A stretch of 18,097 nucleotides of DNA, taken from the NCBI GenBank assembly GCA_008080735.1, contig SHMW01000088.1, forward strand, positions 1 to 18,097, in the 5' to 3' direction. This DNA is from Promethearchaeota archaeon. Lineage in GTDB: Archaea; Asgardarchaeota; Lokiarchaeia; Sigyniarchaeales; SOKP01. Below, in pieces: positions 7,654-8,858 of this stretch; position 1 is the stretch's first letter; the number at the start of each line of letters is the position of its first letter. Below the pieces are notes generated by a model. The model did no database searches. It had not been told where the DNA came from and worked only from the letters and a program-made list of their open reading frames with translations. The position numbers and the translations under genes were made by a program.

Positions 7654-8448
7654 ATGCATTTTTCAAAAGATTATGATAATTTTCTTATCCATACTTTTTG
7701 GTCAAAACCCATAACTGATCTAATAAATAAAACTAAGGAAAAATCGGGAAAAGATTTTACCAGTAGTCATGATCTATTGCTAGAATTTGTTAATAAGGCG
7801 TTGTTTGATGGTGAGGGGGAGTTTAATAAGGAATTTAGACGCAAGGGGAGACATTATTTTGATCTGAAAGTACCAACTCACAATAGTCACGATGAGTTTG
7901 AAATCATAGAATTTAAGTATCACTCCAGTCAATTAAAATATTTGAGATATGAACTAAAAAGACGTGAGGAAATTTTTTCGCATAATGATTATCTCTATTT
8001 CAGTTATTTACTCCGAAGAGTTTCTAAAAAGGAAGACAAAATTATAAATGAGAGTGTGTGTATTTATTATTTGGTCGTAATTATATTATCAAAAAATATA
8101 TGCGAAATACCGATCGATAAATTAATAGAGGATATAAAAATGGGAACAGAAGATATCACTAAAGATGTGGCAAAAAAAAGTGATATTGATGAAGAGGAAG
8201 AGGAATTATTGGGAGTAGAGAATATAATCAAAGTTGTTGACCTCGAGCGAAAACTGGAAGACCAAAAGAAAAGATATAAACGAGAATTGAAAGTGAAAAA
8301 AAAGGAGCTAAAAGAGAGAGAAGAGGAGCTAAAAGAGAGAGAAAAGGAGCTAAAAGAGAGAGAAGAGGAGCTAAAAGAGGAGAAAAAGCTACGAAAAGCG
8401 AAGGAAAAAGAAATTGAATGGTTAAAAGATCGATTAGACAATACTTAG
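7654..8448 (+). CDS. Putative PD-(D/E)XK nuclease-fold protein with acidic patch and C-terminal heptad-repeat coiled coil
   Basis: 'KEFRRKGRHYFDLKV...FEIIEFK' matches the E..D..ExK pattern. The tail contains DEEEEE and (K/E)ELKERE repeats. Confidence 0.65.
   Translation: MHFSKDYDNFLIHTFWSKPITDLINKTKEKSGKDFTSSHDLLLEFVNKALFDGEGEFNKEFRRKGRHYFDLKVPTHNSHDEFEIIEFKYHSSQLKYLRYELKRREEIFSHNDYLYFSYLLRRVSKKEDKIINESVCIYYLVVIILSKNICEIPIDKLIEDIKMGTEDITKDVAKKSDIDEEEEELLGVENIIKVVDLERKLEDQKKRYKRELKVKKKELKEREEELKEREKELKEREEELKEEKKLRKAKEKEIEWLKDRLDNT
8302..8379 (+). repeat. Coding tandem repeat, 21-nt unit RAGGAGCTAAAAGAGAGAGAA, about 3.7 copies
   Basis: Units start at 8302, 8323, 8344 and 8365 (partial). The first base alternates A/G, giving a 42-nt super-unit. 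Encodes (K/E)ELKERE. Confidence 0.95.
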
Positions 8449-8591
8449 ATTTTAATTATATATCTCTATTTCTATGACTGATAAATTTTTGAAAAATTCT
8501 GTATATGACTAAAATCCATGAATTTAAGATAACTCCCATAATCCGCTAAGATATTCGCGATTGCTATTTTTGAAGCGATGGAGAGGATAAG

Positions 8592-8858
8592 ATGAAAATA
8601 GAAAATATCAGTAAAAATGTTGCGTTAAAAAGTGATACTGATGAAGAGGAAGAGGAATTATTGGGAGTAGAGAATATAATCAAGATTGTTGACCTCGAGC
8701 GAAAACTAGAAGACCAAAAGAAAAGATATAAACAAGAATTGAAAGTGAAAGAAAAGGCGCTAAAACAGAGAGAAGAGGAGCTAAAAGAGGAGAAAAAGCT
8801 ACGAAAAGCGAAGGAAAAAGAAATTGAATGGTTAAAAGATCGATTAGACAATACCTAG
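8592..8858 (+). CDS. 88-aa coiled-coil protein, stand-alone paralogue of the C-terminal part of 7654-8448
   Basis: Intact ORF whose ATG aligns with internal Met163 of the upstream gene. It is preceded by GGAGAGGA and ends in the same WLKDRLDNT-stop. Confidence 0.65.
   Translation: MKIENISKNVALKSDTDEEEEELLGVENIIKIVDLERKLEDQKKRYKQELKVKEKALKQREEELKEEKKLRKAKEKEIEWLKDRLDNT

Follow-up and report, generated by a model that had tools for sequence, protein, structure and literature searches.

The window analysed here is an entire contig of 18,097 bp from a 4.1-Mb metagenome-assembled genome (MAG; 34% GC, 7% contamination), and it carries a long gene followed on the same strand, after a spacer, by a short open reading frame (ORF) that repeats the end of the upstream gene (Table 1). 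The first-pass annotation had read the short ORF as a duplicate of residues 163-264 beginning at an in-frame Met, and alignment of 8137-8448 with 8589-8858 confirms this; homology extends from the in-frame ATG at 8140 (Met163) and the ATG at 8592 to both stop codons, and it is broken by a single 42-nt gap that equals two of the 21-nt tandem units. The 19 nucleotide differences between the copies fall in 17 codons, of which 12 change the amino acid and 5 are silent, in agreement with the figure of about 19 substitutions given earlier, and the short ORF runs open to its stop codon with no frameshift. Both ATGs are indeed preceded by a Shine-Dalgarno (SD)-like sequence, which for the short ORF is GGAGAGGAT at 8580-8588, 4 nt upstream of its ATG. 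The acidic EEEEE patch that had been pointed out is seen as DEEEEELL, and the E86-F-K88 motif is likewise present.

Table 1. Features of the nuclease locus, with their positions in the window
Feature	Position	Strand	Description
Long gene, 264 aa	7654..8448	+	PD-(D/E)XK-like domain, then helix-strand linker, then heptad-repeat coiled coil
Putative catalytic residues	7768..7917	+	H39/D40 7768-7773, D70 7861-7863, E86 7909-7911, K88 7915-7917
Candidate internal start	8128..8142	+	GAGGAT 8128-8133, in-frame ATG of Met163 8140-8142; predicted 102-aa short form
Four tandem 21-nt units (7-aa heptads), long copy	8303..8384	+	Tandem Repeats Finder: period 21, 4.0 copies
Spacer, 143 nt	8449..8591	+	T5 runs, TTTAAGATAA box, GGAGAGGAT before short ORF; unique to lineage
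Short ORF, 88 aa	8592..8858	+	Free-standing copy of long-protein residues 163-264, two heptads shorter
Ancestral 3' flank of nuclease gene	8859..8972	+	Runs up to convergent HAD hydrolase gene 8973-9611 (-)

Origin of the duplication

No third copy of the tail was found anywhere in the 4.1-Mb genome, and the spacer likewise has no second copy in it; at the other loci of the family (cited by number below) the spacer is absent, except that its first 36 nt occur at the end of L011. It gave no Rfam match and no stable fold (z 0.01), and an RNA gene or structured element was rejected on that ground; a decayed N-terminal domain was rejected as well, since the family HMM finds nothing in it and its one DNA match to the ExK strand is reached by 6 of 500 shuffles and is not collinear with another weak match. 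The 60 nt before the Met of the long and short copies align only weakly, at a level that 6 of 500 shuffles reach.

At two orthologous loci, L012 (87% identity) and L013 (69%), the order is aldehyde dehydrogenase, YjeF/carbohydrate kinase, DUF169, MBL-fold hydrolase, nuclease gene and convergent HAD hydrolase, with one nuclease gene followed by about 115 nt and with no short tail copy at either. The flank at 8859-8972 is 83% identical over 90 nt to that directly after the single L012 gene. Since the orthologous loci lack the short copy and this flank is orthologous to that of L012, the tail copy and the 143-nt spacer together constitute a lineage-specific insertion. A second assembly (L011, JGI) has an identical N-terminal part and a long gene of 250 aa, two heptads fewer, and its contig ends 36 nt past the long-gene stop codon, within the spacer; those 36 nt match the window.

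Just upstream of the nuclease gene, the MBL-fold gene (5749-6513) is represented by a decayed second copy of its 3' end, with 6442-6514 and 7510-7590 aligning at ~73% identity over 73 nt, and between the MBL 3' end and its relic sits a gene (6587-7414, 275 aa) with an N-terminal CxxC motif and no Pfam family. L013 lacks this 275-aa gene, which therefore has the appearance of an insertion in which the target gene's 3' end was duplicated, an event of the same kind as the tail duplication. The ORF at 10195-10866 is a truncated TnpB (OrfB_IS605, E 1.7e-18; Cas12f1-like TNB domain, E 3.7e-10). Beyond the HAD gene, L013 has a MazE/PIN pair and L012 a UPF0175 gene; because these contents differ from those of the window, the region downstream of the HAD gene is a variable spot.

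Fold, distribution and decay of the nuclease family

The N-terminal part of the long protein gave no match in Pfam, PADLOC, PHROGs or a PDB sequence search, and the PADLOC defence models returned only coiled-coil noise for the long protein (E above 0.08); across the family, VRR_NUC gave a weak Pfam match in 9 of 61 members. An AlphaFold (AF2) model based on a 61-sequence alignment reached pLDDT 89.6 and pTM 0.73, whereas a single-sequence run reached pLDDT 51 only and was of no use. The model places strands at 2-6, 10-16, 71-74, 82-89, 113-124 and 138-146, with an alpha-beta-beta-beta-alpha-beta core, and predicts for the tail region a helix at 154-175, a strand at 183-187 (the conserved EELLGV) and one helix at 195-263. 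The tail had been described as a coiled coil; the description fits the long helix 195-263, but the helix 154-175 and the strand 183-187 come first.

Foldseek returned influenza PA-N (E 0.01, probability 0.9), and the structural neighbours ranked by Z were Hjc (5.2), HinP1I (5.0), SPARDA (4.9), Cas4 (4.6) and HamA (4.5), together with a RecU-like resolvase, EcoRV and SwaI; these neighbours are almost all PD-(D/E)XK enzymes, at low scores (Z no higher than 5.2, TM 0.49-0.55 by target). Matches of the model to Atlas clusters were PDDEXK_9, HSDR_N_2 and PDDEXK_14, and an exhaustive VIA search of the model was dominated by the coiled coil. In the homologue alignment H39 is kept in 58/58 sequences, D40 in 52/58, D70 in 57/58 and E86 in 59/59, while position 88 is Lys in 39/59 and Arg in 18/59 (K or R in 57/59); D70 opens the modelled strand 71-74, and E86 and K88 lie within the modelled strand 82-89. 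With H39, D40, D70 and E86 near-invariant, and with K or R at 88, all at the catalytic positions of the fold, the N-terminal part is accepted, at the level of model and motif, as a predicted PD-(D/E)XK nuclease domain, which supports the earlier reading of a PD-(D/E)XK-like nuclease with an ExK motif.

The family is small and narrowly distributed. Among 1.84 billion proteins it has 27 representatives at 50% identity, and its 54 clusters at 90% identity all come from Lokiarchaeota/Promethearchaeia MAGs or metagenomes, every named one being 'hypothetical'. Of 36 other genomes in the same taxonomic family, 8 carry it (9 of the 61 searched when the window's own is counted), with 2-4 matches in four of the related genomes that carry it, and among the 60 related genomes searched it was not found in any other taxonomic family. 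About 60 further loci were collected, with ~33 intact genes and ~11 broken by in-frame stops or frameshifts. No conserved neighbour or partner gene, no conserved flanking sequence and no terminal repeats of a mobile element were seen across the family loci. The neighbours are chiefly housekeeping genes, not defence islands; PIN toxin genes lie near L013, L028 and L066. In its distribution and decay the family resembles toxin genes of the selfish or defence type.

The heptad array differs in every homologue, and strain variation in heptad number is seen between the 264-aa protein of the window and its near-identical 250-aa counterpart in L011. Five homologues (L041, L057, L058, L069 and L034, the last identical to L007) have a single in-frame stop, at varied positions and without a frameshift, and their part after the internal Met is open; the nuclease part could have been knocked out repeatedly in this way. 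At L039 (three copies within 3 kb), L055 and L077, full, broken and fragmentary copies are clustered on both strands. L085 has two divergently oriented 270-aa genes (minus about 260-1069 and plus 2365-3177), in which a very divergent N-terminal domain keeps the H..D..E-V-K spacing and the tail is related to that of the family, with VPVENIIKVEDLER followed by a coiled coil.

Candidate internal start and recurring tail copies

The first-pass annotation had tied a short form to an internal start at Met163 and had asked for its conservation, which holds in part. Among 61 homologues, 44 have Met at position 163 and 4 have Val (with a GTG codon in both Val cases with DNA), but the position is conserved no better than the neighbouring I161, K162 or G164, and a separate subfamily has Lys, Gln or Thr there. 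Met163 falls inside the modelled helix 154-175, ahead of the conserved strand, so that a protein begun there would, on the model, keep half of this helix together with the strand and the coiled coil.

The 16S 3' end was not found in the assembly, and SD motifs were therefore judged by genome-wide enrichment. In this genome a minority of starts have a GGTGA or GAGG motif some 16 to 9 nt upstream, and five SD-like tetramers stand upstream of 11.5% of internal ATGs genome-wide. GAGG starts 12 nt before the ATG at 8140, within the genome-wide GAGG peak before first ATGs. Among distinct homologues with Met or Val at 163, 20 of 26 have an SD-like tetramer before this position against 7.7 expected, the expectation coming from the same peptides re-encoded with family codon usage (synonymous resampling), in which the rows are related and shared ancestry is ignored; in the Lys163 group 0 of 18 have one, where 4.6 would be expected. 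No fewer than 11 different peptide contexts keep the motif, but codons elsewhere in the gene are as skewed as the SD-like site, and in LVAE-type sequences GGTG stands at -16, on the margin of the genomic peak. We consider this enrichment suggestive of a ribosome-binding signal. In the Lys163 subfamily (e.g. L059, L062, L066 and L070) all 13 distinct sequences have the same nine bases, AAGGAGGAG, directly before Met166, while synonymous sites near them vary; this element was not counted as support because it lies only 2 nt from the ATG.

Between the short and long copies of the window we counted 5 synonymous and 14 nonsynonymous changes (dN/dS 0.62, dS 0.11), which gives no clear purifying selection on the short copy. 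Eight of the 14 nonsynonymous changes fall within its first 12 codons, and codons 16-88 have 3 synonymous to 6 nonsynonymous; the counts do not separate relaxed evolution from function. The stop-free frame is weak evidence, because by our estimate about 1 in 5 neutral copies with 19 substitutions would stay open in such Lys/Glu-rich sequence.

A second tandem pair was found at L042, in a different clade, where a full-length gene is directly followed by a 5'-truncated copy with fewer repeats whose first ATG is the Met163 equivalent. A recount of this pair, in which a two-step CTT-to-TTA change was taken as silent and eight misaligned leading positions were left out, gave 14 synonymous against 8 nonsynonymous differences, where ~36 nonsynonymous would be estimated if one copy were drifting; judged by these substitution counts, the L042 pair appears clearly to be under purifying selection. 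Tail-only ORFs that lack any nearby N-terminal part are also present at L035, L068, L071/L074, L072, L078/L081 and L079/L080. In a tree of the shared region the tail-only copies must have arisen independently at least 8 times, every time from within full-length genes, and the tandem copies of the window and L042 are each closest to their own upstream gene; given the scatter of tail-only copies among full-length genes, an ancient separate lineage of short genes was rejected. Recurring tail-only genes in Lokiarchaeia, which the annotation had asked after, are thus found, in L042 and in the orphan tails; the window's own copy is confined to its lineage, whereas tail-only copies as a class are not unique to this genome. 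Note that C-terminal patterns were used in the locus search, so tail-containing remnants are favoured in these counts, and that N-terminal fragments of the family occur too.

Interpretation and comparison with known systems

Going beyond the duplication, the fold and its motif, the distribution and decay of the family, the repeat variation and the recurring tail copies documented above, we favour, with a probability of roughly 0.4, a functional long/short module that would be analogous to bacterial Rpn; the earlier long/short interpretation is to that extent partly supported, most of the refuting conditions set for it having turned out in its favour. The long gene would encode a stand-alone Mg-dependent DNA endonuclease of PD-(D/E)XK fold, which probably self-associates through its C-terminal heptad-repeat coiled coil, and the length of this coiled coil shifts fast by gain or loss of 21-nt units. 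A short protein, presumably translated from the Met163 internal start with its own SD-like site, would have the helix-strand linker and the coiled coil in common with the long protein, and could pair with it and so keep the nuclease inactive. The partial duplication seen in this strain would then have added a second, separately encoded short form directly downstream, as ypaA lies after rpnE. The module may act against viruses. For the family at large we suggest, tentatively and with belief short of even odds, an Asgard-specific nuclease in which Rpn logic evolved independently: its oligomerisation tail, translated from an internal start and time and again released as a gene of its own, would serve as antitoxin, and fast heptad change would set partner specificity.

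The 88-aa ORF could instead be a functionless by-product of a recent partial duplication or insertion, open by chance and decaying, in a family that may be a nuclease without any short partner, and we regard this as a serious contender though not one we would bet on. Its dN/dS of 0.62, with 14 nonsynonymous to 5 synonymous changes, is what such a copy might show, about 1 in 5 neutral copies would have stayed open, and the copy is absent from L012, L013 and every other protein cluster; the family is moreover rich in broken genes and in fragments of both halves, and the decayed MBL 3' end at about 7510-7590 is a nearby relic of the same sort beside an inserted gene. Against this, the duplication begins at the internal Met that is conserved, GGAGAGGAT lies before the ATG of the second copy, divergence clusters within the first 16 codons, with 96% identity over the strand and coiled coil, and the independent L042 pair is, by its substitution counts, clearly under purifying selection.

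We reasoned also that the tail copy might be a silent donor cassette, from which recombination or gene conversion would alter both the sequence of the expressed coiled coil and how many heptads it has, cassette-based variation being known for surface or specificity determinants. The gradient of identity (none clear upstream of the Met, 79% over the first 48 nt and 96% after, with dS 0.11) fits conversion tracts, and in L011 a tail otherwise of the long type shows two features of the short copy, its two-heptad form and its CAG codon; however, a repeat expansion in the window's long copy explains the L011 pattern as simply, there is one cassette only, and neither a recombinase nor a conserved recombination site lies nearby, so that we consider this account improbable. 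Still less credible is an assembly artefact joining two strain variants of one gene. The source is a MAG with 7% contamination and L011 breaks 36 nt after the long-gene stop codon, but the 143 nt of unique sequence between the copies must physically adjoin both, L011 independently has the first 36 nt of that unique spacer, and the 14:5 nonsynonymous-to-synonymous pattern is unlike allelic variation.

If the Rpn-like module is real, a coiled-coil antitoxin-within-toxin would be the first of its kind in archaea. The genes-within-genes logic of toxin and antitoxin would then not be peculiar to Rpn, which would amount to convergent control of toxic nucleases, and it would reach the archaeal relatives of eukaryotes; an unannotated Lokiarchaeial family would gain a function, and a compact system would be at hand for how coiled-coil repeat number tunes self-inhibition. 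Should this reading fail, the locus still records a lineage-specific PD-(D/E)XK family whose turnover and repeat evolution are very fast.

Among known enzymes, Hjc and small type II restriction endonucleases are the best structural neighbours of the family. The likeness to Hjc lies in the core fold (2wiw_A, Z 5.2, 100 residues aligned, rmsd 3.6), and the spacing of acidic residues and lysine resembles what we take to be the Hjc active site. Hjc is near-universal and single-copy, whereas this family is patchy and multi-copy with many pseudogenes; Hjc is also short, whereas this family adds an N-terminal hairpin and a C-terminal coiled coil. Orphan antitoxins and decayed toxin-antitoxin loci offer another parallel, in that recurrent 5'-truncated copies keep just the putative inhibitory part once the nuclease part has been lost; here, however, the putative antitoxin would be a segment of the toxin itself, and the recurrence comes from a search biased to C-terminal remnants.

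Homology to Rpn itself (PF04754/COG5464) is rejected at the sequence level, in keeping with the earlier view of the system as an analogue rather than a true Rpn. PF04754 (Transposase_31/Rpn) gave no Pfam match at E up to 1 among 61 members and none against 41 Lokiarchaeial genomes, this one included, with a positive E. coli control; hhalign of the family against the RpnA profile gave a probability of 0.3%. DUF4351 had no Pfam match in family members, and the single modelled helix 195-263 speaks against a short form folded as a three-helix bundle (DUF4351-like). In a language-model search the named clusters closest to the family were Transposase_31, PDDEXK_2, DUF2887 and DUF4351, but their score of 0.76 makes them an unreliable lead only.

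The resemblance to Rpn is one of organisation. In Rpn, translation from an internal start yields short C-terminal proteins that neutralise the PD-(D/E)XK toxins (PMC10400941), and here too a predicted N-terminal PD-(D/E)XK nuclease is joined to a variable, putative helical oligomerisation region at the C terminus, with a candidate in-frame internal start preceded by a ribosome-binding-like site. The repeats of the Rpn short forms vary in number between strains and set pairing specificity (PMC10400941); in the archaeal family repeat number varies between strains as well, in the helix common to the long and short forms. Second copies of the short gene have arisen independently in bacteria, directly downstream, as in rpnE-ypaA and rpnC-rpnCSs (PMC10400941), and the window and L042 have free-standing copies of the short part directly downstream and of independent origin. 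Rpn genes form tandem arrays without defined element ends (PMC10400941), and this family is likewise patchy, multi-copy and tandemly duplicated with no defined element ends. The two differ in that the repeats here are of 7 aa (21 nt) within a single long coiled-coil helix, whereas those of Rpn are of 4 aa within a three-helix bundle, and in that the archaeal family is confined to one family of Lokiarchaeia.
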